DNA of 64,000 bases, taken from an uncultured bacterium (lineage in GTDB: Bacteria; Joyebacterota; Joyebacteria; Joyebacterales; Joyebacteraceae). This document shows, one piece after another, positions 3,306 to 21,306 of this stretch (its first letter is position 1; every line of letters starts with the position of its first letter). The notes beneath the pieces are model-generated. The model ran no database searches. It saw only the letters and a list, made by a program, of their open reading frames with translations, and had not been told where the DNA came from. The stretch is taken from the NCBI GenBank assembly GCA_964516845.1, contig CAZEXP010000006.1, forward strand, positions 16,503 through 80,502. Direction: 5' to 3'. The position numbers and the translations under genes are program-made.

Positions 3306-4057
3306 CCGTGAGTTCTCCAGCGAGACGGAAGAGAGCGACCGGCCGGCTCAGCCTCGGTGACCGGCTCCTGGTAGGCTTCGTTGGGGCGTTCGGGCCGGCA
3401 GTCGTCAGACTCCTTGGTGCCTCGTGGCGCGTTCGCTTCGTCAATGCCGGCGCTGTTGGGTCGGTGCACGCGTCGGGGAGACCGCTCATCTACGCGTTCT
3501 GGCACAGCTACATACTGCCACTCGGGTACACACACCGAGGCCGCGGCGTCGTGGTGCTGTCGTCATGGCATCGCGACGGTGAGATCACCGCACATCTGCT
3601 GAGGGCTCTCGGTTTCGCTGTCGAGCGAGGCTCGACAACGCGCGGTTCCGTCCGGGGCGTGGTCAGGATGGTGGGGCGCGCTCGTGAGGGGCGCGACCTT
3701 GCGATCACTCCCGACGGACCGAAGGGGCCGGCGCGGGTCTCTCAGACCGGTGCCGGATTCGTCTCGCGGAGGGCCGATGCGCCGATCGTCGCTCTCGGTG
3801 TCGGCGTCGACCGGTGCCGCCGGCTTTCGGGTTGGGACCGTTTTGTGATCCCGTACCCGTTCGCCCGCATCGTCGTGCTCCACAGCGACCCCATCGAGAT
3901 CGCAGAGGGTCAGGGCCTGGATGCCGCCGCGTCGTCGCTCACCGCCGAGATCGATCGGCTCTGCATAGAGGCACAGGCGCTCGCGGAGGAACCGTCCCGG
4001 TTCGACGCGCTGAGCCGCGGCACATCCGGGGATGCGGAGGGCCGGACGCGTGAGTAA
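3302..4057 (+). CDS. DUF374-family protein (lysophospholipid-acyltransferase-like, KdtA-associated)
   Basis: 251 aa. GTG start overlaps the lpxB stop (GTGA). Contains FWHSYILPLGY...ITPDGPKGP, resembling DUF374 proteins that are typically encoded next to waaA/kdtA. Confidence 0.65.
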   Translation: MTVSSPARRKRATGRLSLGDRLLVGFVGAFGPAVVRLLGASWRVRFVNAGAVGSVHASGRPLIYAFWHSYILPLGYTHRGRGVVVLSSWHRDGEITAHLLRALGFAVERGSTTRGSVRGVVRMVGRAREGRDLAITPDGPKGPARVSQTGAGFVSRRADAPIVALGVGVDRCRRLSGWDRFVIPYPFARIVVLHSDPIEIAEGQGLDAAASSLTAEIDRLCIEAQALAEEPSRFDALSRGTSGDAEGRTRE

Positions 4058-5375
4058 CCAGCGAACATGGACACCGTTTGCCTATCGCGTCTATCGATTC
4101 GCGACATGGGCCGTCTGGTGCCTGGTGTGGGTGGGCCTGCGCGTTGCGGGGCTGAAGAGCCGGGAGTGGCGCGAGCGACTCGGGAACGTTCAGGACTCGC
4201 CGCAGGGGGCCGTCTGGGTCCACGCCGCATCCGTCGGCGAGGTCGGTGCCGCGCTCCCGCTCGTCCGCGAGCTGTCGTCGCGCGGATGCGACGTGCGCGT
4301 GACCGTTGTGACCCCGGCCGGCGTCCGCATTGCCCGGACGTCGCTGCCGGAAAGCATCCCCGTGTGTTTCGCGCCGCTCGACTTCGTCGCCGTCACCAGG
4401 CGCGCCCTGCGCGCCACGCGCCCGTCGCTGATCATCCTCATCGAGACCGAGCTCTGGCCGAATCTCCTGTTCGAGGCGAGGGCCTGCGGTGTCCCTGTGG
4501 TGATGGCGAACGCGCGCCTGTCGGAGCGGAGTCTCTCGCGCTATCGTTCGAAGGGGTCGCCGCTGCGCGGTGTGGCGCAGCTCATTCGAGCCGCGGTCTG
4601 TCAGTCCGACGATGACGTGCGGCGTTTCGTCAGACTCGGGTTTGACCGGTCGAACGTGCGCTCCTTCGGCAGCACCAAGTTCGATTCGCTTGACGCTCCG
4701 TTGTCCGCCTCGAAGCGGGGGGAGCTGAGGAGGTCGTTCGGGTTCGATGCGGCTGCCCCCGTGCTGGTCTTCGGAAGCGTGAGGCCGCTGGAAGAGGCGG
4801 AGGTGGCCCGCGCTGTGGCACAGTGCCTGGCCGGTCTGGACCGCGCGCGCGCCGTGATCGCGCCGCGACACCTGGAGCGCGTCGCGCCGCTCATCGCGGC
4901 GCTCGGAGGCTCGGGCGTCGCCGGCGTTCGCAGAACCAGGCTCGTTCAGAGTGCGGCGGACGTGACGGAGCGTCCCGGCGTCGTCATCCTCGACACGACC
5001 GGCGAGCTCGGGGATGTGTACGCGATAGCCGACGCGGCGTTCGTGGGCGGGACGCTCGCGGACTACGGTGGGCACAACCCGCTCGAACCGGCGGCGCAGG
5101 GAGTGCCGGTCGTGCTCGGGCCGCACACGGAGACCTGTCGGGAGAACGCCGAGCTGCTGCTCGACGCAGGCGCGGCGGTGACGGTGTCGAATGGCGAGGA
5201 GCTTGCGGAAGAAATGGTCCGCATCGTGCGGGACGACGACGTTCGTCGGGCGATGTCGGAGGCTGCGCTCCGTGTGATGGAGGAGGGACGGGGAGCCTCC
5301 GCGCGCGCCGTCGAGTGGCTTGCCGGACTCGGACTGTTGCGGGTCGCCGGGCCCGGGGAAGGATCGACGTCGTGA
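4032..5375 (+). CDS. waaA: 3-deoxy-D-manno-octulosonic acid (Kdo) transferase WaaA/KdtA
   Basis: 447 aa. N-terminal GT30 domain with the conserved HAASVGE motif (VWVHAASVGEVGAALPLVREL) and C-terminal GT-B half. The start may be a few codons downstream (GTG 4050). Confidence 0.85.
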   Translation: MRRAGRVSNQRTWTPFAYRVYRFATWAVWCLVWVGLRVAGLKSREWRERLGNVQDSPQGAVWVHAASVGEVGAALPLVRELSSRGCDVRVTVVTPAGVRIARTSLPESIPVCFAPLDFVAVTRRALRATRPSLIILIETELWPNLLFEARACGVPVVMANARLSERSLSRYRSKGSPLRGVAQLIRAAVCQSDDDVRRFVRLGFDRSNVRSFGSTKFDSLDAPLSASKRGELRRSFGFDAAAPVLVFGSVRPLEEAEVARAVAQCLAGLDRARAVIAPRHLERVAPLIAALGGSGVAGVRRTRLVQSAADVTERPGVVILDTTGELGDVYAIADAAFVGGTLADYGGHNPLEPAAQGVPVVLGPHTETCRENAELLLDAGAAVTVSNGEELAEEMVRIVRDDDVRRAMSEAALRVMEEGRGASARAVEWLAGLGLLRVAGPGEGSTS

Positions 5376-6544
5376 CCCGCCCGGAAAGGACTGCGCCGAC
5401 CGGTGCGCCGGCGAGCGCGACACCCTCGTTGAGACGACGCAGCGCTTCGGCGTGGTGGCGCGATGTCGCCTACGCCCGAACGGATGTGCGCCCGCCCGGC
5501 TTGTATGCGGTCTGGTTCCTCGTGTTCTGCTCGGTCGTCTACGGGATCATCTCGTTCCTGGCGATGCGCCTCCGGGCGCGTGGAGCGGTCAGCGCGACGG
5601 TCCCCGTCATCTCGGTAGGGAACCTCGTTGTCGGTGGCACCGGCAAGACACCACTCGTGGTCTATCTTGCGCGGATGCTCGTGAGCGATGGTCACCGGGT
5701 CGTGGTCGTCAGCCGGGGCTACGGACGGGCCGGGCGGACGCCCGTCATCGTCTCGCGGGGCGACCGGGCGCTGGTCGGGTGGCGCGAGGCGGGTGATGAG
5801 CCCTCGCTTATCTCCATGCTGGCTCGCGGCGCCGGAGTGGTCGTCGCCTCTCGGCGGTCGGAAGGCGTGCGCGTCGCGGTGGAAAAGCTCCGGGCCGGTG
5901 TTATACTTCTTGATGACGGCATGCAGCATGTGCAGCTTGCCCGCGATCTGGATATCGTCGCGGTCGACGCACGCTCGCCGCTCGGGAACGGTCATTTGCT
6001 CCCGGCCGGTCCTCTTCGGGAACATCCGCTCGGTGTCATGAGGGCGGGGCTCATCGTCGCGACGCGGTGCGACCGGGCCGGAGGTGCGGCGGACGTGCGG
6101 CGGACCGTGGGTTCGCTTGCCCCCGGTATCCCGATCGTCGAGACGAGAATGCGTCTGGCCGAGCTCTGGGACGTCTCGACGGAGCGCCCCGTCAGGGCGG
6201 CCGACATCCGCGGTGGAACGGCGTTCGCGGTGGCCGGGATCGCCGATCCTGACGACTTCAGGGAGACGCTGCGCGAACTCGGCTTCCACGTTGTCGGTCT
6301 GCACGCGTTCGCCGACCACCACGAGTTCACGGACGACGACATCGCCGGTCTCGATGAGGAGCTGGACGAATTCGGGGCGAGTGTCGTCCTCACGACGGAG
6401 AAGGACGCGGTCCGGCTCCGTGGCTGGCGTCCGCGCGTGCCGCTCGTCGCCGTCGGGATCGACATCGAAGTGACGCGGGGCGAGAGCCTGGTGCGCGACG
6501 CGCTCAGACGCGCGATCGCGCGGGGAGAACGAGATGACGCTTGA
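5372..6544 (+). CDS. lpxK: Tetraacyldisaccharide 4'-kinase LpxK
   Basis: P-loop VPVISVGNLVVGGTGKTP and the LpxK C-terminal region. Candidate GTG start overlaps the waaA stop (GTGA); the true start could be downstream (e.g. 5486). The annotated 573-aa ORF from 4823 is out of frame over waaA and is not real. Confidence 0.8.
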   Translation: MTRPERTAPTGAPASATPSLRRRSASAWWRDVAYARTDVRPPGLYAVWFLVFCSVVYGIISFLAMRLRARGAVSATVPVISVGNLVVGGTGKTPLVVYLARMLVSDGHRVVVVSRGYGRAGRTPVIVSRGDRALVGWREAGDEPSLISMLARGAGVVVASRRSEGVRVAVEKLRAGVILLDDGMQHVQLARDLDIVAVDARSPLGNGHLLPAGPLREHPLGVMRAGLIVATRCDRAGGAADVRRTVGSLAPGIPIVETRMRLAELWDVSTERPVRAADIRGGTAFAVAGIADPDDFRETLRELGFHVVGLHAFADHHEFTDDDIAGLDEELDEFGASVVLTTEKDAVRLRGWRPRVPLVAVGIDIEVTRGESLVRDALRRAIARGERDDA

Positions 6545-7460
6545 GGAATACGGAGGTCTGTCGACCGAGGAACTGTCGGAACGGATCCGCCGGTCGAAGG
6601 AGGAGAAGCGGGCGGTCATCCTGGGCCACAACTACCAGGTGCCGGAGGTGCAGGTGCTCGCCGATCACCTTGGCGATTCGCTGAGGCTGGCGCAGCTCGC
6701 GACCGAGACCGATGCTGAGCTCATCGTTCTCTGCGGTGTGTGGTTCATGGCGGAAAGCGCGAAGATCCTCAATCCGGACCGACGCGTCATCATCCCGTCA
6801 AGGGACGCGGGCTGTCCAATGGCCGAGATGGCTACCGCCGAGGGCGTTGTCAGGCTCAAACGGCGGCATCCGGGCGTCCCCGTCGTCAGCTACGTCAATA
6901 CGTCCGCGGAGGTCAAGGCTGTCAGCGACGTCTGCTGCACGTCGGCCAATGCGGTCAGGATCGTCGAGGCCGTCGAGGGCGACACGGTCATCTTCGTTCC
7001 CGACAGGAACCTCGGCGCGTACGTGGCCTCGAAGACCGGGAAGAACGTCATTCTCTGGCAGGGGCACTGCTACGTGCACAACATGTTCGTTCCGGAGGAC
7101 ATCGAACTCGCCCGCGGCGAGCATCCCGGTGTTCCCGTGGTCGTCCATCCCGAATCGCCGCCCGACGTCATCGCGCGGGCCGAGTTCGTGGCGTCGACCG
7201 GAGGCATGATGAAGCTCGCCGAGGAATACGACGAACTCATCGTCGGGACGGAGATCGGACTCATCGAGAGAATGAATCGGGAGTTTCCCGAGAAGCGCTT
7301 CTATCCGCTCTCGGCGTTCGCGGTCTGCCGCACTATGAAGATGACGGACCTTCCTCGGCTCGCGTGGGCGCTCGAGCACGAGGAGTACGAGGTGACGGTG
7401 CCCGAGGACATCCGTCGGGGCGCGGAGCGCGCGCTCGCGCGTATGCTCGAGCTCTCCTGA
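6534..7460 (+). CDS. nadA: Quinolinate synthase NadA
   Basis: 308 aa. Motifs ILGHNYQ, CGVWFMAESAKIL and VSYVNTSAEVKA are typical of NadA. The ATG overlaps the lpxK stop by 11 nt. Confidence 0.9.
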   Translation: MTLEEYGGLSTEELSERIRRSKEEKRAVILGHNYQVPEVQVLADHLGDSLRLAQLATETDAELIVLCGVWFMAESAKILNPDRRVIIPSRDAGCPMAEMATAEGVVRLKRRHPGVPVVSYVNTSAEVKAVSDVCCTSANAVRIVEAVEGDTVIFVPDRNLGAYVASKTGKNVILWQGHCYVHNMFVPEDIELARGEHPGVPVVVHPESPPDVIARAEFVASTGGMMKLAEEYDELIVGTEIGLIERMNREFPEKRFYPLSAFAVCRTMKMTDLPRLAWALEHEEYEVTVPEDIRRGAERALARMLELS

Positions 7461-7483
7461 GCCGGGCGTGGGGGAGGCATGAC

Positions 7484-9088
7484 GTGGAGAGGTCCGACTT
7501 CATCGTCGTCGGAAGCGGGATCGCCGGGCTGACGTTCGCTCTGAACGCGGCCGAGAGCGGGCGGGTCCTCATCGTCACGAAGAAGGACGACAAGGAGTCT
7601 GCCACGAATCTGGCGCAGGGCGGCATTGCCGCCGTCGTGGCGCGCGAGGATTCGTTCGATCGACATGTCGAGGACACACTTGCCGCCGGCGTTGGCCTCT
7701 GCAATCGCGAGGCCGTGGAGATCGCCGTCCGGGGTGGCCCGGACGCCGTGCGTCGCCTCACCGAGTGGGGGACTCACTTCTCCACGGAGACCGACAGCGC
7801 GGGCGGCACATCGCTCGCGCTTGGTCGAGAGGGCGGCCACTCCGAACGTCGCATCGTGCACGCGGCGGACATGACCGGACGCGAGATCGAGGCCGCGCTC
7901 CTCGGAGCGGTCGACCGGCATCCGAACATCGAGGTGCTCGAGGACCACATCGCGCTCGACCTCATCACGACGGGCGAGGGAGTGGACAAGGCCTGCGCCG
8001 GCGTCCAGGTGCTCGATGACCCCGCTGGCGAGGTGAAGACGCTCCTCGCGTCGGTGACGGTGCTCGCGACCGGCGGATGCGGACGCGTCTACCTCTACAC
8101 GACCAACCCCGATATCGCCACGGGCGACGGCATCGCCATGGCGTTTCGGGCGGGCGTCGCCGTGCGGAACATGGAATTCGTGCAGTTCCACCCGACCTGC
8201 CTCTATCATCCGGACGTTCGTTCGTTCCTTATCTCGGAGGCCGTCCGAGGCGAGGGAGCCGTGCTTCTGAGTCTCGCGGGCGAACGGATCATGGAGGGTG
8301 TCGATCCCAGGAAGGAACTCGCTCCGCGCGACATCGTTGCTCGGGCCATCGACCGGACCATGAAGCAGACCGGTGACAAGCATGTCTATCTCGACATCAC
8401 GCACGTCGCGCCCGAGCGTGTGACGGCGCGCTTCCCGGGCATCTCATCGCGTCTGATGGAACTCGGCATCGACATGACGAGCGAGCCGATCCCGGTCGTC
8501 CCGGCGGCGCACTATCTGTGCGGCGGTATCGAGGTCGACATGGACTGCCGAACCAGCCTCCCGGGTCTCTACGCATGCGGCGAGACCGCGCACACCGGGA
8601 TGCACGGGGCCAACCGTCTCGCGAGCAATTCCCTTCTCGAGGCGGTCGTCTTCAGTGAGCGTGCCGCGCGGCGCGCGACCGCCGAGCTTGCGGAGCGGCG
8701 TGCGGCTCGCGACGCCTCCGGCGACGTCGAGTGGGACGGCATGGGGGTCGGCCCGATTCCCGAGGGTGTGCTGATGGACTACAACTGGGACGTCGTGAGG
8801 CGTCTGATGTGGGACTACGTGGGCATCGTCCGGACGGAAAGGCGTCTCAGACTCGCGGTCGCGCGGATGGCCGCGATCAGACGCGAGGTCATGGATCTCT
8901 ACGCCCGGTACCCCGTCAACGCCGACATCCTCGAGCTTCGGAATATCTCGCTCGTCGGCGAACTCGTCATCCGTTGCGCGCTCGACCGGCGTGAATCCCG
9001 GGGGCTCCACTACCTGGAGGACCATCCCGACCGCGATGACGAGAACTACCTCCGCGACACCGTGATCCCGGGGGGGTCCGGGCTCTAG
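7484..9088 (+). CDS. nadB: L-aspartate oxidase NadB
   Basis: FAD-binding N-terminus DFIVVGSGIAGL and the fumarate-reductase/succinate-dehydrogenase flavoprotein fold. GTG start 6 nt after a GGGGGAGG Shine-Dalgarno. The upstream part of the 782-aa ORF (6740-7483) lies over nadA out of frame and is spurious. Confidence 0.88.
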   Translation: MERSDFIVVGSGIAGLTFALNAAESGRVLIVTKKDDKESATNLAQGGIAAVVAREDSFDRHVEDTLAAGVGLCNREAVEIAVRGGPDAVRRLTEWGTHFSTETDSAGGTSLALGREGGHSERRIVHAADMTGREIEAALLGAVDRHPNIEVLEDHIALDLITTGEGVDKACAGVQVLDDPAGEVKTLLASVTVLATGGCGRVYLYTTNPDIATGDGIAMAFRAGVAVRNMEFVQFHPTCLYHPDVRSFLISEAVRGEGAVLLSLAGERIMEGVDPRKELAPRDIVARAIDRTMKQTGDKHVYLDITHVAPERVTARFPGISSRLMELGIDMTSEPIPVVPAAHYLCGGIEVDMDCRTSLPGLYACGETAHTGMHGANRLASNSLLEAVVFSERAARRATAELAERRAARDASGDVEWDGMGVGPIPEGVLMDYNWDVVRRLMWDYVGIVRTERRLRLAVARMAAIRREVMDLYARYPVNADILELRNISLVGELVIRCALDRRESRGLHYLEDHPDRDDENYLRDTVIPGGSGL

Positions 9089-9104
9089 CACGGGAGCGAT
9101 CACC

Positions 9105-10691
9105 ATGAGACTGCGACACACGTGGGCGGCGGCTGCGATCATCCTGGCGGCGTCCTGCCTCTCGGCGTGCGCCCGGGGAAGCGAGGAGACGATGAGCAGC
9201 GAACGCTACGAAGTGAGACGCCCCGTGGTCGCGGGGACGTTCTATCCCGGTGACGCCGCGGAACTTGGCGCCGAGGTCGACGGATATCTGGAAGACGCCG
9301 AGCAGCTCGAGCTTCCCGGCGAGATCGCGGCCGTCATCGCGCCGCACGCGGGATATGCCTATTCGGGCGGGGTAGCCGGTGCGGCGTATGCGCAGCTTCG
9401 CGGGTATTCGTTCGACACGGTCGTCGTGGTTGCGCCGTCGCACCGCGCGGCGTTCCGCGGGTCCTCCGTTTACGGAGGGGATGCGTATGAGACGCCGCTG
9501 GGGACCGTTCCTGTCGATGAGACACTCGCGGACGCCATCCGCGGGCGCGGTGAGGCGTTCGCCTATCGGCCGGGGGCGCATTCGGCCGAGCACTCGCTCG
9601 AGGTCCAGGTTCCGTTCCTTCAGCGTGTGCTGGAGGACTTCGCGATCGTGCCGATCGTGATGGGGGAGCAGACCGAGTCGGCCGTGCGGGCGCTGGCGGG
9701 CGCCATCGCCCGGGCGGTCGAGGGGACCTCGTCGCGCGTTCTTCTCGTGGCCAGCACCGACCTGTCGCACTATCACGACCAGCAGAGCGCGAACGCGCTC
9801 GACCGCGTCCTGGTTGACCGCGTCGCCGCCTTCGATCCGGAGGGGCTTCTGGCCGACCTCGCCGCGGGCCGATGCGAAGCGTGCGGGGGAGGACCGACGG
9901 CCGTCGTCATGATGGCGGCCAGACACCTCGGAGCCGATCGCGCCACCGTCGTGAGGTACGCGACGTCCGGCGACGTCTCGGGAGACATGAGCCAGGTCGT
10001 GGGATATCTCTCCGCGGTCCTGACTCGACGGCCCGCGGAGCAGAACGCCACGACGTCGGCCGGTGCGACGCCAGCGGCGCCGGGCACTGGGGACGGGAGC
10101 GGGTCCGCCGGGGACGCCGTGGCTCCGTACGAAGGTCTGACGAACGACGAACGCCTTACGCTGCTCGGACTCGCGCGCGCGACCGTTGAGGCCGCCGTGC
10201 GTGGTAAGCCGCTGCCGGGTCTCGATGCGGTCACGCCGGCTCTCTCGACGCCGTGTGGTGGATTCGTCACGCTCGACAAGCGTGGGCAACTGAGAGGGTG
10301 CATCGGGTACGTCGTCGCCGTGAAGCCGCTCCACGAGACGGTCTCCGAGATGGCGGTTCAGGCGGCGCTTCACGATCCGCGGTTCCCCGCGGTGACCGCT
10401 TCGGAGCTCCCCGACATCGAGATCGAGATCTCCGTGCTCTCGCCGCTGCTGGCGGTCGATGACGTCTCCGAGATCCAGGTCGGCCGCGACGGGCTCGTCA
10501 TCAGAGGACGCGGGACGAGCGGGCTGTTGCTCCCACAGGTGGCCTCCGAACGCGGATGGGACCGGGAGACGTTCCTCGATCAGACATGCGTGAAAGCGGG
10601 TTTGCCTCCGGGGACCTGGCGTGAGCGGGACATCACGATCCAACGCTTCTCGGCCGAGGTCTTCAGCGAGAAGGATATGGGCCTGCGGTGA
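9105..10691 (+). CDS. Fused AmmeMemoRadiSam system protein B (MEMO1-like) and protein A (AMMECR1 domain), with an N-terminal lipoprotein signal peptide
   Basis: 528 aa. N-terminus MRLRHTWAAAAIILAASCLSAC gives a positive n-region, a hydrophobic core and an LSAC lipobox. MEMO motifs APHAGYAYSG and TDLSHYHD are present. An Ala/Gly/Thr-rich linker follows, then a C-terminal AMMECR1 domain (PCGGFVTLDKRGQLRGCIGY). Directly followed by the cognate radical SAM gene. Confidence 0.8.
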   Translation: MRLRHTWAAAAIILAASCLSACARGSEETMSSERYEVRRPVVAGTFYPGDAAELGAEVDGYLEDAEQLELPGEIAAVIAPHAGYAYSGGVAGAAYAQLRGYSFDTVVVVAPSHRAAFRGSSVYGGDAYETPLGTVPVDETLADAIRGRGEAFAYRPGAHSAEHSLEVQVPFLQRVLEDFAIVPIVMGEQTESAVRALAGAIARAVEGTSSRVLLVASTDLSHYHDQQSANALDRVLVDRVAAFDPEGLLADLAAGRCEACGGGPTAVVMMAARHLGADRATVVRYATSGDVSGDMSQVVGYLSAVLTRRPAEQNATTSAGATPAAPGTGDGSGSAGDAVAPYEGLTNDERLTLLGLARATVEAAVRGKPLPGLDAVTPALSTPCGGFVTLDKRGQLRGCIGYVVAVKPLHETVSEMAVQAALHDPRFPAVTASELPDIEIEISVLSPLLAVDDVSEIQVGRDGLVIRGRGTSGLLLPQVASERGWDRETFLDQTCVKAGLPPGTWRERDITIQRFSAEVFSEKDMGLR

Positions 10692-10722
10692 CGTCGCGGG
10701 TGAGCGAAGGTCGGGAGGCATC

Positions 10723-11838
10723 ATGAGGTGGTTCACGCCCCTGCTGCTGACAGCGGCGCTCGCGGTCGGAATTCTCGGCGTCACTGGTCTGGTGACGTCC
10801 GGTTCCGACGGCGGCGCTCCGGGGTACACCGACCCGCGTGTCGCGCTCTACTGGGAGGACGCGGGCGGAGGGAACGTCCGGTGCACGCTGTGTCCCCGCC
10901 GGTGTGTCGTGCCGCCGGGCGCGCGAGGGCATTGCGGCGTCCGTGAGAACCGCGGCGGGACCTACTACACGCTCTCGTACGGCAACCCGTGCGCCGTGCA
11001 CGTCGACCCTATCGAAAAGAAGCCCTTCTATCATTTCCTGCCGACAACCTCATCGTTCTCGATCGCGGTGGCCGGGTGCAATCTCGACTGCAAGTTCTGT
11101 CAGAACTGGCATATCTCGCAGCGTCGACCCGAGGAGACGTACAACTACAGGCTTCCGCCCGAGGAACTCGTCGACCTCGCCCTTGAGAGCGGGTGCAACA
11201 GCATCGCCTACACCTACTCGGAACCGACCATCTTCTACGAGTACATGCTCGACTGCGCGCGGGAGGCGCGGGGGCGCGGTCTGCGGAACGTCTATCACTC
11301 CAACGGATTCATCAATGAACAACCGCTCCGCGAGCTCTGTTCGTACCTCGATGCCGCGAACATCGATCTCAAGGGTTTCACGGAGGAGTACTACTCGGAG
11401 ATGACCGGAGGAAGCCTCGCGCCGGTGCTGCGGTCGCTCCGGATCCTCGTCGAGGAGGGTGTGCATCTGGAACTGACGACGCTCGTGGTCCCGGGCGGGA
11501 ACGACGACCCCGACGATCTCCGGGCGATGTGCCGCTGGATCCACGAGAATCTGGGGGACTCGGTTCCGCTCCACTTCTCGCGATTCCACCCGCAGTATCA
11601 GCTGACCGGGCTGGCGCCGACGCCGCTGGCAACGCTCGAACTCGCGCGGCGGACGGCGCTCGAGGAAGGGCTCCGCTTCGTCTATATCGGCAACATCCCC
11701 GGACACGAGGCGAACAGCACCTACTGTCCCTCCTGTGGCGAGCTGCTGATCTATCGGGTCGGGTATGACGTTGAGATCCGGGGGCTCGATGCGGGGGTGT
11801 GCGCGACGTGTGGTGATGTCATCGAGGGCGTCTGGTAG
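10723..11838 (+). CDS. AmmeMemoRadiSam system radical SAM enzyme (AmrS-like) with an N-terminal hydrophobic anchor/signal
   Basis: ATG at 10723 preceded by a GGGAGG Shine-Dalgarno. N-terminus MRWFTPLLLTAALAVGILGVTGLV is a predicted TM helix or signal. It is followed by the AmrS-type Cys cluster CTLCPRRC...HCGVREN and the radical SAM motif CNLDCKFC (CX3CX2C). The C-terminus carries a second Cys cluster, CPSCGELL...CATCG. Confidence 0.8.
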   Translation: MRWFTPLLLTAALAVGILGVTGLVTSGSDGGAPGYTDPRVALYWEDAGGGNVRCTLCPRRCVVPPGARGHCGVRENRGGTYYTLSYGNPCAVHVDPIEKKPFYHFLPTTSSFSIAVAGCNLDCKFCQNWHISQRRPEETYNYRLPPEELVDLALESGCNSIAYTYSEPTIFYEYMLDCAREARGRGLRNVYHSNGFINEQPLRELCSYLDAANIDLKGFTEEYYSEMTGGSLAPVLRSLRILVEEGVHLELTTLVVPGGNDDPDDLRAMCRWIHENLGDSVPLHFSRFHPQYQLTGLAPTPLATLELARRTALEEGLRFVYIGNIPGHEANSTYCPSCGELLIYRVGYDVEIRGLDAGVCATCGDVIEGVW

Positions 11839-11896: not shown

Positions 11897-11925
11897 TTGA
11901 CAGGCCGCTCACCATCGTCTATTGT
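11897..11925 (+). promoter_or_regulatory. Near-consensus sigma70-type promoter upstream of the beta-helix gene
   Basis: TTGACA (11897-11902), a 17-nt spacer, then TATTGT (11920-11925). A GAAGGAGG Shine-Dalgarno precedes ATG 11996. Confidence 0.45.
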
Positions 11926-11995
11926 CTAGGTGAAGTATATCCAGGTTCAGCGACCGGAGATCTTGGAACCTCTCAGTAGCGAGAAGGAGGAGCAG

Positions 11996-13009
11996 ATGCG
12001 TTGTCTCCTGGTGGTTCTCATTGTGGGGCTCTTCGCGGCGGTCGGGATGGCCGACGTGATCGTGGTGCCGGATGAGGAGAACGATATCGAGTGCATCCAG
12101 CAGGGTCTGGACCTCGCTTCGGCCGGCGACACCGTGCTCGTATACGCCGGCGTCTACGACAGCGTGCATTACTTCCAGACGCCCATCGGGACGCGGTCCG
12201 CTATTTGCCAGCTCAAGGATGGCGTGACGATTCGGGGCATCGATCGGGACGACGTGGTGATCGATCACACCGATGCGGACTACGGCATTCTCTGTGTGGA
12301 CGTGGGAAGCGGCGCTCAGGTGAAGGCCCTGACGGTCGTGGGCGGTGTGTCGGTTCGACAGGACAACGTCATCGACGGTGACGGGAGAGATCTTCGGGCG
12401 GGGATCAGCTGTCTTTCGAACGCCTCGCCGGTCATCCGCTACGTCACGATCGAGGAGTCCTCGACGGGTCTGTTGTGCCGCACCAACTGCGCGCCGACCG
12501 TTGAAAACTGCCTTATCGTGCGCGGTGGCCACCACGGCGTCTATGTCTACATGAACGGCGCGACGCCGGTCACGCTCGACCGCATGACCATCGTCGGCAA
12601 CTTCGATTACGGTGTGTACGTGTTCAGCGGCGCGGTGGATGTATCGAACTCGTGCATCACTCATAACCACAAGTCCGGCGTCTACGACTATCTGTCGACG
12701 GTGGGCGTGGACCACTGCAACGTCTACTGGAACGACTATGTCAGCACCGACTTTCTCAATTACGGCGGGGGTCTTGCCGACCAGACCGGTCTGAACGGGA
12801 ACATCTCCGAGGAGCCGTACTACTGCGACTACGTTGGTGATGTGGGGTATGACTACCAGGTCTGCTTCACCTCGCCGAACGTCGATGCGGGCGTGGGCGG
12901 TTCCGACATCGGAGCCGATACCAGCGGGTTCGGAGTCGGTTCCTGCTCGAACTGTGTCTCGCCGGTGAGTCAGGTCAGCTGGGGCGCGATCAAGGCGCTC
13001 TATCGCTGA
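11996..13009 (+). CDS. Secreted Cys-rich right-handed beta-helix (pectin-lyase-fold-like) protein
   Basis: Start taken at MRCLLVVLIVGLFAAVGMA (signal peptide) after a strong Shine-Dalgarno. Repeated segments such as GVYVYMN/GVYVFSG/GVYDYL and NCLIVRGG resemble parallel beta-helix repeats. About 20 Cys residues. No recognisable enzyme motif. Confidence 0.55.
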   Translation: MRCLLVVLIVGLFAAVGMADVIVVPDEENDIECIQQGLDLASAGDTVLVYAGVYDSVHYFQTPIGTRSAICQLKDGVTIRGIDRDDVVIDHTDADYGILCVDVGSGAQVKALTVVGGVSVRQDNVIDGDGRDLRAGISCLSNASPVIRYVTIEESSTGLLCRTNCAPTVENCLIVRGGHHGVYVYMNGATPVTLDRMTIVGNFDYGVYVFSGAVDVSNSCITHNHKSGVYDYLSTVGVDHCNVYWNDYVSTDFLNYGGGLADQTGLNGNISEEPYYCDYVGDVGYDYQVCFTSPNVDAGVGGSDIGADTSGFGVGSCSNCVSPVSQVSWGAIKALYR

Positions 13010-13075
13010 TAGGCAGCTCCGGGCTTTCGCCCGACGCATCATGTGCGCGGCAGGACTGCGCTATTCGACCATTAC

Positions 13076-13119: not shown

Positions 13120-15486
13120 TCAGCGTGTTGGAGCCGTGAGGGTGAGCGACGCGAGAACCGAGGCGTTGAGGACGGCGAGACCGATCATCGTGCCGAGCGT
13201 TCCGAGGACCGGCAGGAGAAGCACGGAAGCCGTGATGGCTCCGAGCGCCGCCCCGAAGAGATCGGCCGAGTAGAGGGCGCCGCCTTGCCGTGTCACGTCC
13301 GCCCCGCTTCGCCCGCGGAGAATGGACGTCGCGAGCGGGAACTGGATACCGGCGAGCACGGCGGACGCGGCGACGAGGGCGGGGAAGAGGGCGGCGCCGG
13401 CAAAGCCTGAGGAGGCCGCCGCTCCAAGGCGGGCGACGGCGATCCCGAAGCCGACCGGGACCGCGGTCAGTCCGCACTGCAGGAGGATGTACCCGCGGTC
13501 GAGCGTCGGCAGCGACGTCATGCGCGTGCCAAGCCACCCGCCGAGCGCGAGTCCCAGCATGAACGCGGCGGTGATGAGCGCCAGGTGGCCGTAGACGTAC
13601 CCGTAGAAGCTCTGATACGCCACGATGGCCGATATCTCCAGTGTCATTTCCGTGAATCCGACAACGACGACCGAGAGGATCACTGCACGGGCGAACGACG
13701 CGCGACGCGTCGCACTCGTCCCGACCGCGGATCGTCTCCGAGAGAGGATACGGGGAGCCGCTCCGAATGTGATGGCGAGAAGGGCGGCGAATGCGGTGAG
13801 TCTCGACAGATCGACGGCCCGCCGACCGGTCTCGAGGAGGCGGCTCGTGCCGCTCCGAAGCTGCGAGCGGACGACGAGACCGGCGAGGTACCCGCGCGGG
13901 CTGAGGTCGCGGTTCAGTCCTGCCGTGGACGCTCGACCGATCGCTTCGTCGCCCGCTTCCAGTCTGGCTGAGCTGAAGCGGTCCTCGAGATAGTATCGAG
14001 CGATGAAACGTGTGTCGATCCCGCGTCTCTCGACTTCGTCGGCGAGCTGTGAGCCTCCGCGGATGAGCCGCGAGGCCGGACCGCCGGCGACGACGTGGGA
14101 TGGGTCTCCCGGGAGCAGCGCGACCCGGGAAAAGGCGCTCTCGAGCGACTCCATGAGACAGAGAACGAACTCGGCGAGGTCTGGAGGGATGTAGTTCTCA
14201 GACCCGGAGACCGTCAGGGCGATGACGCCGTCATCCGCGAGCACGCGGCGTGCCTCCCGGAAGAACTCGACCGTGTAGAGGCGGTTGAGCTGCGTGGTCG
14301 TCGGATCGGGGACGTTGAGGATGATGACGTCATAGCGTGCGTCCGTCGTGCGGATGAACAGCCTCGCGTCGCCATGGTGCGTCCGGACACGCTCGTCCCC
14401 GAGTCCTGCCAGGAGCGAATCGTGGAAGGCCTCCCGCGCTGTGAACAGCAGCGCCGGGTCCAGCTCGACGTAGTCGATGCTCCGAACCGACGGGTGCTTG
14501 AGCGCCTCGGCGATCGAACCGCCGAGACCGCCGCCGACGAGCAGTACGCGTTCGGGCGCGGGGTGTTGAAGCATGGGGATGTGTACTGCTTCCTCAGCCG
14601 CGAGTTGATCGGGGGCGGACCCGGCGAGTACGCCGCTCTCGTAGATGCTGAGCTGGCCGTCCCGTCGCGTCGCCACGACCCGACCGTGCACGGAATCGTG
14701 CGAGAGCACGAAGCCGAGTTCGGACCACTGAGCGCGCACGGTCATCTCATCCAGACTGCCCCCGAGCGGCGAGAGAAGCGCGACGCCGACAAGACCGGTG
14801 AGGACCAGGGCGAGCTGCGCGGGCGCCCGGCGCGGGAGGAGCCGGAGCGCCGAGAGCGTCAGCAGCAGCGTGCAGAGACCGGCGATCGCCAACGGCTGGA
14901 GATGCGGGATGAGCACGAAGCTCAGAAGGACGCCGGAGCACACGGCCCCCGCGGCCTCCATCGTGTAGACGCGCGCGGTGGTGTCGAGACGGTCATTGCC
15001 GGCGTTCACGGCGAGGACGCGGACAGTGAGACTGAAGGCGGCGCCCGCAGCGAGGGCGAGAGGGCCGGCGGCGAACACCGCGGCGACCAGAAGCTGTCCC
15101 GGACCGGCAAGCTCACCGGCGTGAGCCCCGAGGAGAGCGCGTCCGGCCCTCGCCGCGAGAAGGGAGAGCGGGCTGAGAAGCGCGAGGGCCGCCAGAACGG
15201 CGGCCAGGCGGGTGTGAGGTGACCGCGTTCTCCAGAAGAGCCTGCCGCCGAGCGCGCTGCCGAGTCCTGCAGCGAGGAGCCAGACGGCCAGAGCGATCCC
15301 GAACGAGGTCTCATCTCCGAGCCACGCGACCATGAGTTCGCGAAGAACCATGGTCTGCACGAGGATCGTCGAGAAGCCGAGTGTCAGGGCCGCCAGGTGT
15401 CCCGGCCCCGGGAACCGCCCCGGTCGGGGACGTCCGGGAGCGGAGCAGGACCGGCCAGGGAACGTGTTCGAGTCGCTTCCATGCAT
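13120..15486 (-). CDS. Membrane-embedded spermidine/spermine-synthase-like protein (polytopic N- and C-terminal domains flanking a SpeE-like methyltransferase-fold core)
   Basis: 788 aa. Multiple hydrophobic helices at both ends. The central region VLLVGGGLGGSIAEALKHP...VDYVELDPALL...VIILNVPDP resembles the aminopropyltransferase (SpeE) fold. Confidence 0.6.
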   Translation of the reverse strand: MHGSDSNTFPGRSCSAPGRPRPGRFPGPGHLAALTLGFSTILVQTMVLRELMVAWLGDETSFGIALAVWLLAAGLGSALGGRLFWRTRSPHTRLAAVLAALALLSPLSLLAARAGRALLGAHAGELAGPGQLLVAAVFAAGPLALAAGAAFSLTVRVLAVNAGNDRLDTTARVYTMEAAGAVCSGVLLSFVLIPHLQPLAIAGLCTLLLTLSALRLLPRRAPAQLALVLTGLVGVALLSPLGGSLDEMTVRAQWSELGFVLSHDSVHGRVVATRRDGQLSIYESGVLAGSAPDQLAAEEAVHIPMLQHPAPERVLLVGGGLGGSIAEALKHPSVRSIDYVELDPALLFTAREAFHDSLLAGLGDERVRTHHGDARLFIRTTDARYDVIILNVPDPTTTQLNRLYTVEFFREARRVLADDGVIALTVSGSENYIPPDLAEFVLCLMESLESAFSRVALLPGDPSHVVAGGPASRLIRGGSQLADEVERRGIDTRFIARYYLEDRFSSARLEAGDEAIGRASTAGLNRDLSPRGYLAGLVVRSQLRSGTSRLLETGRRAVDLSRLTAFAALLAITFGAAPRILSRRRSAVGTSATRRASFARAVILSVVVVGFTEMTLEISAIVAYQSFYGYVYGHLALITAAFMLGLALGGWLGTRMTSLPTLDRGYILLQCGLTAVPVGFGIAVARLGAAASSGFAGAALFPALVAASAVLAGIQFPLATSILRGRSGADVTRQGGALYSADLFGAALGAITASVLLLPVLGTLGTMIGLAVLNASVLASLTLTAPTR

Positions 15487-15784: not shown

Positions 15785-16993
15785 ATGTCCGATATCTCCG
15801 GGCTCCAGGCATCGGTTGTGGAGGAACGCATGGCAGCACGCGAGACACGGGGCGGCTCAGCAGCGGGTGAGCCGTCGGTCTCCCAGATGAGCGACTCGAA
15901 GCCGAAGGTCGCGAAGACGTCACGTCTTGGCCGCCTGCTTGGGACGTATATCGAGCGCTTCGACAGGCCGGAGCCGATCTCGTTCGGAGCGGCTTTCGGG
16001 AGCGTCGAGCGCGTGCTCGTCATCCCGGAGTGTGGAGTTGCGGGCGCGCTGTTCGCGGTTCCGACGCTTCGCGCGATGCGCCGCGGGTTCCCACGGGGGA
16101 AGATCGCAGTGCTCGTGCGTGACGAGGACAAGGAGCTGCTCGAAGGCTTGATCGAGGTGGACCGCGTTATCGGCTACTCGCTGCCGCGCGGCATGAAACG
16201 CTTGTCGGCGTTCATGACCCTTGCGAAGCGGCTGAAGTCCTACCGGTTCGATGTCGCCATACTGCTCGACCGGCAGTCGGATTTCGAGAGGATCTACCTC
16301 TGCTACATGACCGGCGCCAAGATCCGTGCAGGACTCCAGGGAGACGAGAGCCACCCGTTCCTCAACCTCGAGGTGAGCCGGCGGGTCTCCGGGAGCACGC
16401 GTGCCCAACTCGGTCTGGAGATCGCAGGCGTCATGGGTATTGACGTGAGCGAACTCGGCTTGAGGTGGGAGGTCCCCGAGCAGGAGCGCCGAACGGCCGA
16501 GCAGCTCATCCACTTCAGGAAGCCGCGCGAGGATGAGCTCCTGATCGGTTTTGATCCCGGTCCCGGTCGGGGAGGGACGTCCGTTTCAACGGCGCAGCAG
16601 GCGAAGCTTCTCGACCAGTTGTGCGCCGACTACAACGCGCGCGCCATTCTTCTGACATCACCCGAGCACCACGACCATGCGAAGAAGCTCGAGAGTCTCT
16701 TGTCAAGGGAACCGATCTTCGTGCAGCAGCGTCGTACGCGCGACGTCGTGAGCCTCCTGGGCCAGTGCGACCTGTTCGTCGCGGGCAACACCGATCTGGT
16801 CTACTTCGCCATCGCCCTCGGCATACCGACCGTCTCCATGATGACCGCCGGCGAACTCGAGGCGGAGGCGTACCCGGATCGGGGTTGTCTGGAGATCATC
16901 ACGCTGGTTCCGGGTGACCGGTTCCCCATCGAGGAGTTCATGGAGAGGACGCAGAGCGCGATGCTGCGCGGAGCGTCGGAGGAGGGCGGCTAG
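15785..16993 (+). CDS. Glycosyltransferase family 9 (heptosyltransferase-like) protein, divergent
   Basis: 402 aa. GT9-like organisation (N-terminal VLVIPECGVAGALFAVPTLRAM..., C-terminal ...LFVAGNTDLVYFAIALGIPTVS). The N-terminal ~60 aa are low complexity, so the start is uncertain. Confidence 0.6.
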   Translation: MSDISGLQASVVEERMAARETRGGSAAGEPSVSQMSDSKPKVAKTSRLGRLLGTYIERFDRPEPISFGAAFGSVERVLVIPECGVAGALFAVPTLRAMRRGFPRGKIAVLVRDEDKELLEGLIEVDRVIGYSLPRGMKRLSAFMTLAKRLKSYRFDVAILLDRQSDFERIYLCYMTGAKIRAGLQGDESHPFLNLEVSRRVSGSTRAQLGLEIAGVMGIDVSELGLRWEVPEQERRTAEQLIHFRKPREDELLIGFDPGPGRGGTSVSTAQQAKLLDQLCADYNARAILLTSPEHHDHAKKLESLLSREPIFVQQRRTRDVVSLLGQCDLFVAGNTDLVYFAIALGIPTVSMMTAGELEAEAYPDRGCLEIITLVPGDRFPIEEFMERTQSAMLRGASEEGG

Positions 16994-16994
16994 G

Positions 16995-19028
16995 ATGCGT
17001 CCGTTCATCCGACTGCTTGGCTTTGTGAAACCGTACTGGCGCCGCCTCCTGGCGGCGCTCGTCTGCATGGCGGTCTTCGCGGTTCTCTCAGGCGCGTCAC
17101 TCGGCATGATCCTTCCGTTCGTCAACGTGCTGTTCGAACGTGATGCCCTCGTTTCGGACGAGGCGACGACGGTCGTCGCGGGTGCGACGACGGCCGCCGA
17201 AAGTGAGACGGAGGCCGTCGAAAGTGCGACGGCTCAGATGACGGAGGCATCGGGGGGCGCGGTGCCGACCGTTCCCGCGATCGACGACGCGGGCGAATCG
17301 GATGTCGGCGCCGGCGCCGGCGCGCCGATACGCGATCTCAAGGTTGACATACGGGCTCGGATCCTCGAGATGTTCGCGAGCGATTCGCCCGAGCGCGCAC
17401 TCGGCAAGGTGTGCCTGGCGCTCCTGGCCGTCTTCCTCACCCGGGCACTCTTCGGGTACCTTCAGACCTTCCTGATGATGACGCTCGAGCAGCGCGTCGT
17501 TCGCGACCTTCGGAACCGGCTCTTCGAGAAGCTCAGCGGGCTCTCTCTGTCGTTCTTCCACGGGGAGCACACGGGCACGCTGATCTCGAGGATCACCAAC
17601 GATGTAACACTGGTTCGCGGGGCGCTTGTCGCCTCGTTCGTCAACCTGTTTCGCGAGACCTTGCTGACGTTCATCTACCTTGGCGTCGCCATCTGGATCA
17701 GCTGGCGGCTGGCGATCATCACCTTCGTCGTGCTGCCGCCGATCATGTTCCTGATCACGAGGATCGGGGCGCGGCTCCGGAAGAGAAGCACGCGTATCCA
17801 GGAGAAGATGGCCGACATCACATCCACGCTTCAGGAGACGATCTCGGGGATTCGCGTCGTGCAGGCGTTCGGGATGGAGGAGTACGAGCGGCGTCGCTTC
17901 TACGCGCACACCGGGGAGTACTTCAAGAGATTCGTGCGGATGGAGGCGCTTGGCGCCCTCGCGGGACCGCTGACGGAGTTCATGGGTGTTATCGGTGTCG
18001 TCGTTCTGCTCTGGTACGGCGGTCGTCAGGTGCTCCTCGCGGATTCCATCTCCCCGGACTGGTTCCTCATCTTCCTGGGCGCGGCGCTCTCGACGATGCA
18101 GCCGCTGCAGAAGCTCTCGAAGGCGAACAACCAGCTTCAGATGGGACTCGCGGCGGCGGAACGCGTCTTCCAGGTGATCGACACCAAGCCGGACGTGGAG
18201 ACTACGCCGGGTGCGCACGTGCTGACCGGATTCTCCGGTGCCATCAGATACGAGGATGTGACCTTTCGCTACTCCACCGGAACGGATGTGCTCGAGTCCG
18301 TCAACCTCACCGTCCACAAGGGTGAGATCGTTGCGGTCGTCGGTCCGAGCGGCGCGGGCAAGTCGACGCTGCTCGATCTCGTTCCGCGGTTCTACGACCC
18401 GACCGGCGGGCGCGTCATTCTCGATGGACACGATCTCCGCGACGTCGATCTCGCATCACTCAGGCGCCTGATGGGTATCGTCACGCAGGAGACGATCCTC
18501 TTCAACGACAGTGTCCTTGCGAACATCGCATACGGCCTCGAGGGTTCCTCCAGAGAGGATGTCGAGGCGGCGGCGCGCGCCGCGAACGCGCACGAGTTCA
18601 TTCAGTCGATGCCCGAGGGCTACGACACGGTCGTCGGTGAGCGCGGAGCCAGACTGTCCGGCGGTGAACGTCAGCGTCTTGCCATCGCGCGCGCGATTCT
18701 CAAGAACCCGCCCATCCTCATATTCGACGAGGCCACGTCGTCGCTCGACACCGAGTCCGAACGGCTCGTGCAGGAGGCGATCGAGCACCTGTTCGCGGGG
18801 AGGACCGTCCTCATCATAGCGCATCGTCTGTCGACAGTGCGGAACGCCGACCGGATCGTTGCGATGGAGGCCGGGCGCATCGTTGAGGAGGGAACCCACG
18901 ATCAGCTCATTGCGTGGGACGGCCTGTACCGGCGACTGCACGACCTCCAGTTCAGCGGCGCCGGCTCCGAGAGTGATGGTTCCGGACGGCCGGCGGGTGA
19001 CGGCGTCGACGAGGCGGACGAACAGTAG
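16995..19028 (+). CDS. msbA: Lipid A / lipid export ABC transporter MsbA-like (fused permease-ATPase) with an extended first periplasmic loop
   Basis: ATG 16995 immediately after the upstream stop. Six-TM ABC exporter domain, then Walker A GPSGAGKST, signature LSGGERQR and Walker B ILIFDEATS. An insertion of ~70 aa that is Ala/Thr/Glu/Asp-rich lies between TM1 and TM2. Confidence 0.85.
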   Translation: MRPFIRLLGFVKPYWRRLLAALVCMAVFAVLSGASLGMILPFVNVLFERDALVSDEATTVVAGATTAAESETEAVESATAQMTEASGGAVPTVPAIDDAGESDVGAGAGAPIRDLKVDIRARILEMFASDSPERALGKVCLALLAVFLTRALFGYLQTFLMMTLEQRVVRDLRNRLFEKLSGLSLSFFHGEHTGTLISRITNDVTLVRGALVASFVNLFRETLLTFIYLGVAIWISWRLAIITFVVLPPIMFLITRIGARLRKRSTRIQEKMADITSTLQETISGIRVVQAFGMEEYERRRFYAHTGEYFKRFVRMEALGALAGPLTEFMGVIGVVVLLWYGGRQVLLADSISPDWFLIFLGAALSTMQPLQKLSKANNQLQMGLAAAERVFQVIDTKPDVETTPGAHVLTGFSGAIRYEDVTFRYSTGTDVLESVNLTVHKGEIVAVVGPSGAGKSTLLDLVPRFYDPTGGRVILDGHDLRDVDLASLRRLMGIVTQETILFNDSVLANIAYGLEGSSREDVEAAARAANAHEFIQSMPEGYDTVVGERGARLSGGERQRLAIARAILKNPPILIFDEATSSLDTESERLVQEAIEHLFAGRTVLIIAHRLSTVRNADRIVAMEAGRIVEEGTHDQLIAWDGLYRRLHDLQFSGAGSESDGSGRPAGDGVDEADEQ

Positions 19029-19034
19029 GGAGAG

Positions 19035-21292: not shown

Positions 21293-21306
21293 GCAGGGGG
21301 ACCTGA

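Follow-up and report, generated by a model that had tools for sequence, protein, structure and literature searches.

We analysed a stretch of 64,000 nucleotides from an uncultured bacterium of the Joyebacterota (contig CAZEXP010000006.1, forward strand, positions 16,503 to 80,502; hereafter the window). It carries an AmmeMemoRadiSam system, i.e., a Memo-AMMECR1 fusion protein and a radical SAM enzyme, beside a membrane protein encoded on the opposite strand. Comparison with homologous sequences leads us to lean, with some reservation, towards reading this locus as an extracytoplasmic and membrane-associated version of the system, made of three genes and four domains. A cytoplasmic location is taken for granted in radical SAM enzymes, since they need S-adenosylmethionine (AdoMet) and a low-potential reductant and their clusters are oxygen-sensitive. 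The Memo and AMMECR1 families are ancient; they extend to humans and have links to disease. If a real periplasmic radical-SAM pathway operates here, it would be the first radical SAM system outside the cytoplasm, and the chemistry of Memo and AMMECR1 would gain a concrete cellular location. The locus belongs to a large and apparently undescribed exported branch of a known system, which suggests that radical-SAM chemistry takes place outside the cytoplasm. In the searchable literature we found neither an exported radical SAM enzyme nor an AmmeMemoRadiSam variant of this type described; Burroughs et al. 2019 may already note the signals or the SpeE-like neighbour. The gain from the window alone is smaller, as it represents one member of the clade, and the one whose export route is the least clear.

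The AmmeMemoRadiSam genes and their N-terminal signals

A first-pass annotation of the window had assigned the two genes to the AmmeMemoRadiSam family. This assignment was confirmed, as the models TIGR04335, TIGR04336 and TIGR04337 all matched above their cut-offs and the genes are adjacent (Table 1). The fusion of Memo and AMMECR1 into a single 528-aa polypeptide was likewise found as described, both domains being recognised by NCBIfam and by Pfam (Memo, residues 40-305, E 1e-63; AMMECR1, residues 356-520, E 2e-55). The CX3CX2C and LRGCIG catalytic motifs and the His/Cys motifs of Memo are all intact, the fusion bearing PHAGY at position 80, DLSH at 219, ACG at 259 and LRGCIG at 396. Its gene and that of the radical SAM enzyme lie on the same strand, 31 nt apart, an arrangement shared by most related loci, and public gene calls on identical contigs give 528, 371 and 337 aa for the fusion, the radical SAM enzyme and a downstream beta-helix protein. 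Two features distinguish the window from the known system: signals are present on both polypeptides, ahead of the residues at which the models start (38 and 43), and the module has a fourth, conserved partner with MFS- and SpeE-like parts. AmmeMemoRadiSam corresponds to the 'Memo-Ammecr1 system' of Burroughs et al. 2019, as cited in PMC7159879.

The fusion had been considered unusual, the two proteins being normally separate, and this part of the first-pass annotation did not stand. All of the best 120 database matches to the 528-aa protein are Memo+AMMECR1 fusions containing both Pfam domains (120/120), the JGI annotation of the homologs already reads 'protein B/protein A', and the two domains are fused in 41 of the 44 genome loci that have a Memo match. 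Balaji and Aravind (2007; PMC2034487) described fusions of the AMMECR1 gene with the neighbouring gene for a ring-opening-dioxygenase-like (Memo) protein. The Memo-AMMECR1 fusion is a common and previously reported arrangement. Triple fusions in one polypeptide were also observed, in the order radical SAM-AMMECR1-Memo (~900-1150 aa) or radical SAM-Memo-AMMECR1 (locus L085, 9941-12385; proteins P0297-P0377); they are signal-less and, in L085, have no SpeE-like neighbour.

The radical SAM gene starts at the ATG at 10723, with a GGGAGG ribosome-binding site 7 nt upstream. This is the only start with a good Shine-Dalgarno sequence, and the next ATG is that of Met175. A longer version starting at GTG-10621 was discarded: it overlaps the upstream gene, it has no ribosome-binding site and the public calls use 10723. 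The TIGR04337 model begins at residue 43, which defines an N-terminal extension of ~42 aa. The AlphaFold2 model (mean pLDDT 87.9) has a confident core, preceded by a helix at residues 4-25 and a disordered tether at residues 22-29 (pLDDT <50), in agreement with the hydrophobic helix that had been noticed earlier. In addition to the cysteine motifs listed in Table 1, Cys335, Cys338, Cys360 and Cys363 are conserved in the alignment of the homologs (A1). The closest solved fold is that of PflA (Foldseek E 2.7e-13; TM-score 0.79-0.81, PflA-normalised; sequence E 1e-9). The best glycyl-radical activase model scored 60 bits for a cut-off of 250, and no glycyl-radical enzyme was found among the neighbours; the enzyme shares only its fold with the PflA-type activases. 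It differs from them by two Cys4 modules, one N-terminal (C54...C71) and one C-terminal (C335...C363), and by the N-terminal membrane or Tat segment. The target of PflA is a loop of a protein, and the window enzyme could conceivably have a protein substrate as well. Among the radical SAM homologs, P0312 and P0383 are interrupted by inteins (Intein_splicing), with a LAGLIDADG domain in P0312. Four others (P0242, P0248, P0258, P0260) have an N-terminal signal or transmembrane segment (TM) and, between it and the radical SAM core, an additional domain of 230-550 aa; that of P0242 contains Reg_prop propeller repeats.

We then consider the N-termini themselves. The fusion protein starts with MRLRHTWAAAAIILAASCLSAC, in which the basic residues R2 and R4 are followed by a hydrophobic core and by the lipobox L19-S20-A21-C22. 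The lipoprotein signal with an LSAC lipobox that had been proposed is fully present, with a basic n-region (MRLRH), an h-region (TWAAAAIILAASC) and a lipobox, L-S-A-C22, corresponding to [LVI][ASTVI][GAS]C within ~15-35 residues of the start. The start of Memo could be recognised in 112 fusion homologs, of which 91 are extended N-terminally by 20 aa or more; a hydrophobic stretch is found in 90 of these 91, with a canonical lipobox in 10 and a relaxed one in 45. A motif Cys-x(1-2)-EGG (C..EGG) stands right behind the hydrophobic stretch in 46 fusion homologs. In genome loci, 37 of the 44 Memo-side partners have a Sec-type hydrophobic N-terminus. Because the lipobox is canonical and the signal is conserved across the clade, the fusion is predicted to be exported via Sec and lipidated; we infer that Cys22 is the lipidated residue, tethering the protein to the membrane so that it faces the periplasm. 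At the lipobox Cys itself, 46 homologs (P0011-P0074) carry the sequence Cys-[AG]-[AD]-E-G-G-[DE], whereas the window protein has CARGSEE.

The N-terminus of the radical SAM enzyme is of a different kind. It starts with MRWFTPLLL, containing a single Arg, with a KD15 hydrophobicity value of 2.34 and an uncharged run of 26 residues; one basic residue precedes the helix and the net charge over the next 15 residues is -1. There is no twin-arginine (RR) motif, the c-region (GLVTSGSDGG) has no AxA site, and the h-region is more hydrophobic than that of a usual twin-arginine translocation (Tat) signal. Tat is the route for already-folded Fe-S proteins, such as the Rieske proteins and the hydrogenase small subunits, which have cleaved signals or uncleaved anchors. 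Among the best 120 matches to the radical SAM enzyme, nearly all the full-length ones have 45-70 residues before CxLCP. In the window's own clade (76 sequences, >=64% identity), the median KD15 is 2.82 and the uncharged run 25 residues, with a median of 2 basic residues before the helix and a net charge of 0 after it. In the next clade out (56-65% identity; Deltaproteobacteria, Syntrophobacteraceae), a Tat motif is present in 33 of 39 sequences, together with AxA sites and a KD15 of 1.55. The signal SRRHFLKAAACCALF...ASAQ is an example from this distant clade, and P0204 has the cleavage site SPASAQ. The helix of the window enzyme sits where these distant orthologs have their Tat signals. The orthologs thus resemble Tat-dependent Fe-S proteins in their [ST]RR.F[LI]K-type motif, their moderate h-region, their AxA sites and, in four loci, a nearby TatC gene, whereas the window enzyme differs by the lack of RR and by its higher hydrophobicity. 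We found no description of a radical SAM enzyme as a Tat substrate in the searchable literature.

To place these signals in a wider frame, we used a scan of species-representative genomes, which yielded 80 loci from >15 phyla, two of the loci being archaeal. The radical SAM N-terminus is Tat-like in 53 of them (41 RR, 12 KR), hydrophobic without RR in 13 and neither in 14. Tat-like N-termini were called by a rule combining motif and hydrophobicity, for which the baseline among the other open reading frames (ORFs) of these loci is 6%. These data indicate that N-terminal signals recur in the homologs far above background. They had been seen as an oddity of one genome; they are in fact clade-wide, extend over many phyla and are mostly of the Tat type on the radical SAM side. 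The fusion and the N-terminal extensions are both widely conserved in orthologous loci. We infer that, in the window's clade, the anchor arose from a Tat signal by a gain in hydrophobicity and, in most members, the loss of RR. The earlier concern that a Sec-exported Fe-S enzyme would be hard to reconcile with its chemistry is answered in the wider clade by the Tat signals, and remains for the window enzyme, which has no RR. In two metagenome-assembled genomes of Candidatus Eisenbacteria (L035, L065), a more distant radical SAM ortholog (~51-53% identity) has a clear RR Tat motif, so that the phylum holds both Tat-type and anchor-type versions.

The family as a whole is broader than this exported type. 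In a library of representatives at 50% identity, 1,677 members were collected at E <= 1e-30; among the best 150 of them, 60 have no extension, 37 are Tat-like or hydrophobic and 39 are long or fused. As 60 of these 150 relatives are without extension, and as many signal-less triple fusions exist, the exported type is, judging by its sequences, a large sub-clade and not the whole AmmeMemoRadiSam family.

A fourth component and possible electron supply in other lineages

The 788-aa protein encoded on the opposite strand had been missed by the first-pass annotation. It matches NF037959, 'fused MFS/spermidine synthase' (68.1 bits for a cut-off of 40), and Pfam Spermine_synth, and its SpeE fold was recovered at E 1e-20 to solved spermidine synthases; PRK03612 scored far under its cut-off (170 vs 472), and the equivalog models were also below theirs. 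Of 83 loci, 56 encode a homolog at most 7 kb from the radical SAM gene, often adjacent or overlapping, and in loci of the Bacteroidota type (L046-L050, L072) the genes form a same-strand operon in the order Memo-AMMECR1, SpeE-MFS, radical SAM. This partner is commoner with signal-bearing radical SAM enzymes than with the others (24/30 vs 4/10, Fisher p = 0.04). On these grounds of gene content, we regard the 788-aa protein as a conserved fourth component of the module.

A crude prediction gave 7 TMs, a 319-aa loop and 7 further TMs. Counting K+R in the short loops gave 24 on the N-terminal side and 4 on the other, and the SpeE-like loop falls on the K/R-poor side. The same placement was obtained in 27 of 31 loci with a homolog, the remaining ones being three contrary cases and one tie. 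In hhalign, TM1-6 matched TM9-14 without inversion (98.7% probability, E 1.5e-16). A transporter with a 7+7 inverted repeat was rejected on this basis, the repeat being MFS-like. Because the body is an MFS-like 6+6 repeat with the domain inserted in a TM7-TM8 hairpin, the SpeE-like domain is predicted to be outside.

In SpeE, the acidic residues of GGG[D/E]G and D-x-x-[D/E]-P serve in the selection of decarboxylated AdoMet and in the deprotonation of the amine. Among 42 module-linked homologs of the 788-aa protein, the nucleotide-binding acidic residues are kept (E/D at the ribose position in 38/42, D at the adenine position in 41/42). The acidic position of GGG[D/E]G is hydrophobic in all 42 (GGGLGG in the window), and the first Asp of Dxx[D/E]P is kept in 3 and replaced by Asn, Gly or Leu in 39 (NVPDP in the window). 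Since these two typical acidic residues are lost, the domain is probably of the AdoMet-binding type and not a canonical aminopropyltransferase acting on decarboxylated AdoMet. The protein thus shares the SpeE fold with the NF037959 and PRK03612 families and differs from them by the loss of the aminopropyltransferase acidic residues.

In other lineages, the module is accompanied by genes for export and for electron transfer. In L005 and L032 the immediate neighbour of the radical SAM gene is a TatC gene; in L031 and L036 a TatC gene is no more than 2.5 kb away. A DUF362 protein with a Tat signal is a recurrent neighbour. Membrane proteins of the DsbD_2 (CcdA-like) and NosR-like (FMN_bind + Fer4_5) types recur adjacent to the module and, in P0246, P0251, P0252 and P0254, a DsbD_2 or NosR-like protein is fused to the radical SAM domain itself. 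The radical SAM domain of P0252 comes after 7 TMs, with a K/R distribution of 22 vs 1. Both this domain and FMN_bind are thereby placed on the K/R-poor side, and P0253 agrees. Families of the NosR/NapH and CcdA/DsbD types carry electrons across the membrane to periplasmic enzymes, and the associations seen here suggest that these conduits are linked to the reduction of the radical SAM enzyme.

Cellular location of the module

The first-pass annotation had left a choice between membrane anchors holding a cytoplasmic complex and action outside the cytoplasm. The comparative evidence favours the second and disfavours cytoplasm-facing anchors. In an extracytoplasmic module, a signal anchor in N-in/C-out orientation would fix the PflA-like radical SAM enzyme to the inner membrane, on its outer side. 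This anchor would derive from the Tat signal peptide, which has been retained by most orthologs in other phyla; homology, flanking charges and the fusion proteins all point to this descent and orientation. The divergently transcribed MFS-like transporter would expose its SpeE-fold AdoMet-binding domain, between TM7 and TM8, on the periplasmic side, and its MFS-like part would carry AdoMet, or the substrate, to the outer side of this membrane. There, the radical SAM enzyme would initiate a radical modification, the target being either an envelope molecule or the partner proteins themselves, and Memo, with its metal site, and AMMECR1, with its conserved Cys, would finish the reaction. Electrons would cross the membrane, in other lineages through the adjacent or fused DsbD_2/NosR-like conduits. 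The weakest step concerns the substrate, for which the position of the module within a lipid A/lipopolysaccharide (LPS)-core cluster would make an outer-membrane glycolipid a candidate in this lineage.

The complete pathway is a more tentative proposition than the location, and we consider it possible rather than probable. In such a periplasmic radical-SAM pathway, the MFS half would export AdoMet or pass it to its own periplasmic domain, the Tat-exported or signal-anchored radical SAM enzyme would use it outside with electrons from DsbD_2/NosR-like proteins, and together with the Memo-AMMECR1 lipoprotein it would modify an envelope molecule, maybe lipid A or the LPS core. An exported clade would narrow the candidate substrates to envelope or membrane molecules, and predicts that AdoMet (or a derivative) and electrons are delivered across the membrane.

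Several points weigh against an extracytoplasmic module. The periplasm is not known to offer either AdoMet or a low-potential reductant, and Sec export of an unfolded Fe-S enzyme has no known precedent. Tat export of the window enzyme is doubtful because of its single Arg, its very hydrophobic run and a clade that is mostly without RR (RR in only 24 of 76 sequences, a Tat motif in 11). When the Tat-signal model TIGR01409 was applied to ten homologs, P0204 alone appeared among the matches listed, with a borderline 16.1 bits for a cut-off of 16.7; this short model was too insensitive, which is why the motif and hydrophobicity rule was used. A tblastn search of the 64-kb window found none of TatC, DUF362, NosR-like and DsbD_2 proteins, those near or fused to the module all belonging to other lineages. 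The topology calls rest on crude Kyte-Doolittle and positive-inside scripts. Co-localisation of the partners is also not universal: in at least six loci (L028, L053, L061, L063, L074, L086) the radical SAM enzyme is signal-less, and in the four of those six with a Memo-AMMECR1 match the partner keeps its hydrophobic N-terminus.

These six loci fit a split location, with the radical SAM enzyme active on the cytoplasmic side of the membrane (anchored N-out/C-in or untranslocated) and Memo-AMMECR1 and the SpeE loop in the periplasm; we judge this unlikely. The substrate, either a lipid-linked molecule or an exported protein, would then be modified inside, moved by the MFS-like protein and finished outside. 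The loss of RR and gain of TM-like hydrophobicity in most of the window's clade could mark just such a switch from export to anchoring, and a split location would need neither AdoMet nor Fe-S assembly outside the cell. However, basic residues before the helix and neutral or acidic ones after it, in the window and in its clade, favour N-in/C-out, orthologs have bona fide Tat signals in place of this helix, and the fusions P0252 and P0253 place the radical SAM domain on the K/R-poor side. That everything stays in the cytoplasm, with the hydrophobic N-termini as plain anchors gathering a complex at the inner membrane, was the alternative offered by the first-pass annotation. It suits the classical requirements of radical SAM enzymes, and the AlphaFold2 model contains merely a single helix plus tether. 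We nevertheless find it improbable, as a canonical lipobox with its Cys right behind the hydrophobic region implies Sec export and cleavage, as orthologs have Tat motifs with AxA-type sites and, in some loci, an adjacent TatC, and as the positive-inside counts contradict it.

The extracytoplasmic reading further supposes that the signals are translated. An in-frame ATG preceded by GAGGAG lies at codon 30 of the fusion gene, and a start at this Met30 could yield a signal-less, cytoplasmic isoform. If the functional proteins started downstream in this way, they would be ordinary cytoplasmic proteins and the signal segments would be untranslated or minor products. Of the 91 extended homologs, 43 do have a Met located after the hydrophobic region and ahead of the Memo domain, and gene callers picked short starts for ~20 fusion homologs, which look like a choice of an internal Met by the gene caller. 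On the other side, the 48 homologs that have no such Met keep the signal, and the radical SAM gene offers no comparable second start. Moreover, the architecture of the signals (basic residues, hydrophobic stretch, Cys or AxA) is preserved across phyla while the sequence diverges, and segments conserved in this manner must be translated. An artefact of start choice, or a pair of isoforms, is therefore very improbable in our view.

Gene neighbourhood

A lipid A/LPS-core cluster surrounds the module (window positions 2166-9088 and 15785-22434; Table 1). The order of the lipid A/LPS-core genes is the same in L006; the cluster order is conserved in a 615-kb relative and not in distant clades.

Table 1. 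Positions of the module, its motifs and the neighbouring genes in the window.
Feature	Position	Strand	Basis
LpxB	2166-3305
KdtA	4032-5375
LpxK	~5450-6544
NadA, between LpxK and the module	6534-7460
NadB, between LpxK and the module	~7502-9088
Memo-AMMECR1 fusion (AmmeMemoRadiSam proteins B+A), 528 aa, predicted lipoprotein precursor	9105..10691	+	Pfam, NCBIfam above cut-offs
Signal peptide with lipobox LSAC; Cys22 codon 9168-9170	9105..9170	+	read from sequence
In-frame alternative ATG, Met30 (codon 30), GAGGAG 3 nt upstream	9192..9194	+	sequence
Memo (LigB-like) domain, residues 38-305	9216..10019	+	TIGR04336, 297.1 bits vs cut-off 26
AMMECR1 domain, residues 353-520	10161..10664	+	TIGR04335, 178.7 bits vs cut-off 99
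AmmeMemoRadiSam radical SAM enzyme, 371 aa	10723..11838	+	TIGR04337, 380 bits vs cut-off 220
Hydrophobic helix (residues ~3-25) and Gly/Ser tether; signal-anchor type, no RR	10723..10797	+	AlphaFold2, KD15
N-terminal Cys cluster C54-x2-C57-x3-C61...C71	10882..10935	+	(nearly) invariant columns, alignment A1
Radical SAM CX3CX2C motif, C119/C123/C126	11077..11100	+	invariant in A1
Sigma-70-like promoter match TTGACA-17-TATTGT, upstream of the beta-helix gene	11897..11925	+	10/12 matches
Secreted right-handed beta-helix protein, 337 aa, 14 Cys	11996..13009	+	Pfam Beta_helix, NosD
Polytopic protein, 788 aa: MFS-like 6+6 TM repeat, TM7-[SpeE-like domain]-TM8 insertion	13120..15486	-	NF037959
SpeE-like AdoMet-binding domain, residues ~244-562, predicted periplasmic	13801..14757	-	positive-inside counts
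MsbA-like ABC transporter, downstream of the module	~17100-19028
GT9 heptosyltransferase-like, two genes	19035-20207 and 20066-21292
GT4/GT1	21307-22434

The beta-helix gene downstream of the radical SAM gene begins at ATG 11996 and its product has a signal-like N-terminus; the promoter search that gave the match in Table 1 returned 2 sites in the region for 0.5 expected. This protein had been proposed as a client of the system, a suggestion that the comparison did not sustain. Among the 80 genome loci, the gene is present in L008 and absent from the other 79; it is otherwise found on the identical contigs L001-L003 and in the related L006/L007. Being confined to these close relatives, it was rejected as a component of the system. 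The protein ends with ...SWGAIKALYR right at the stop codon (12980-13009), which resembles a sorting-type C-terminal motif and is the only one of its kind in the six frames of the window.

Long shadow ORFs lie over real genes of the window, at 8967-10829 (- strand, 620 aa), 11909-13042 (- strand, 377 aa) and 14095-15222 (+ strand, 375 aa). They are artefacts of a G+C content of 65-68%, and similar ones clustered across loci; clusters 1, 3, 5, 8 and 9 of the neighbour analysis, made of antisense or alternative-frame ORFs over radical SAM, AMMECR1 and SpeE genes, were discarded. Between the membrane protein and the MsbA-like gene, a 402-aa ORF (15785-16993) gave no Pfam match at E <= 1e-5, and the syntenic gene of L006 gave a weak GT9 match only. 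NadA is found near the module, together with LolA, in the unrelated locus L004 as well.

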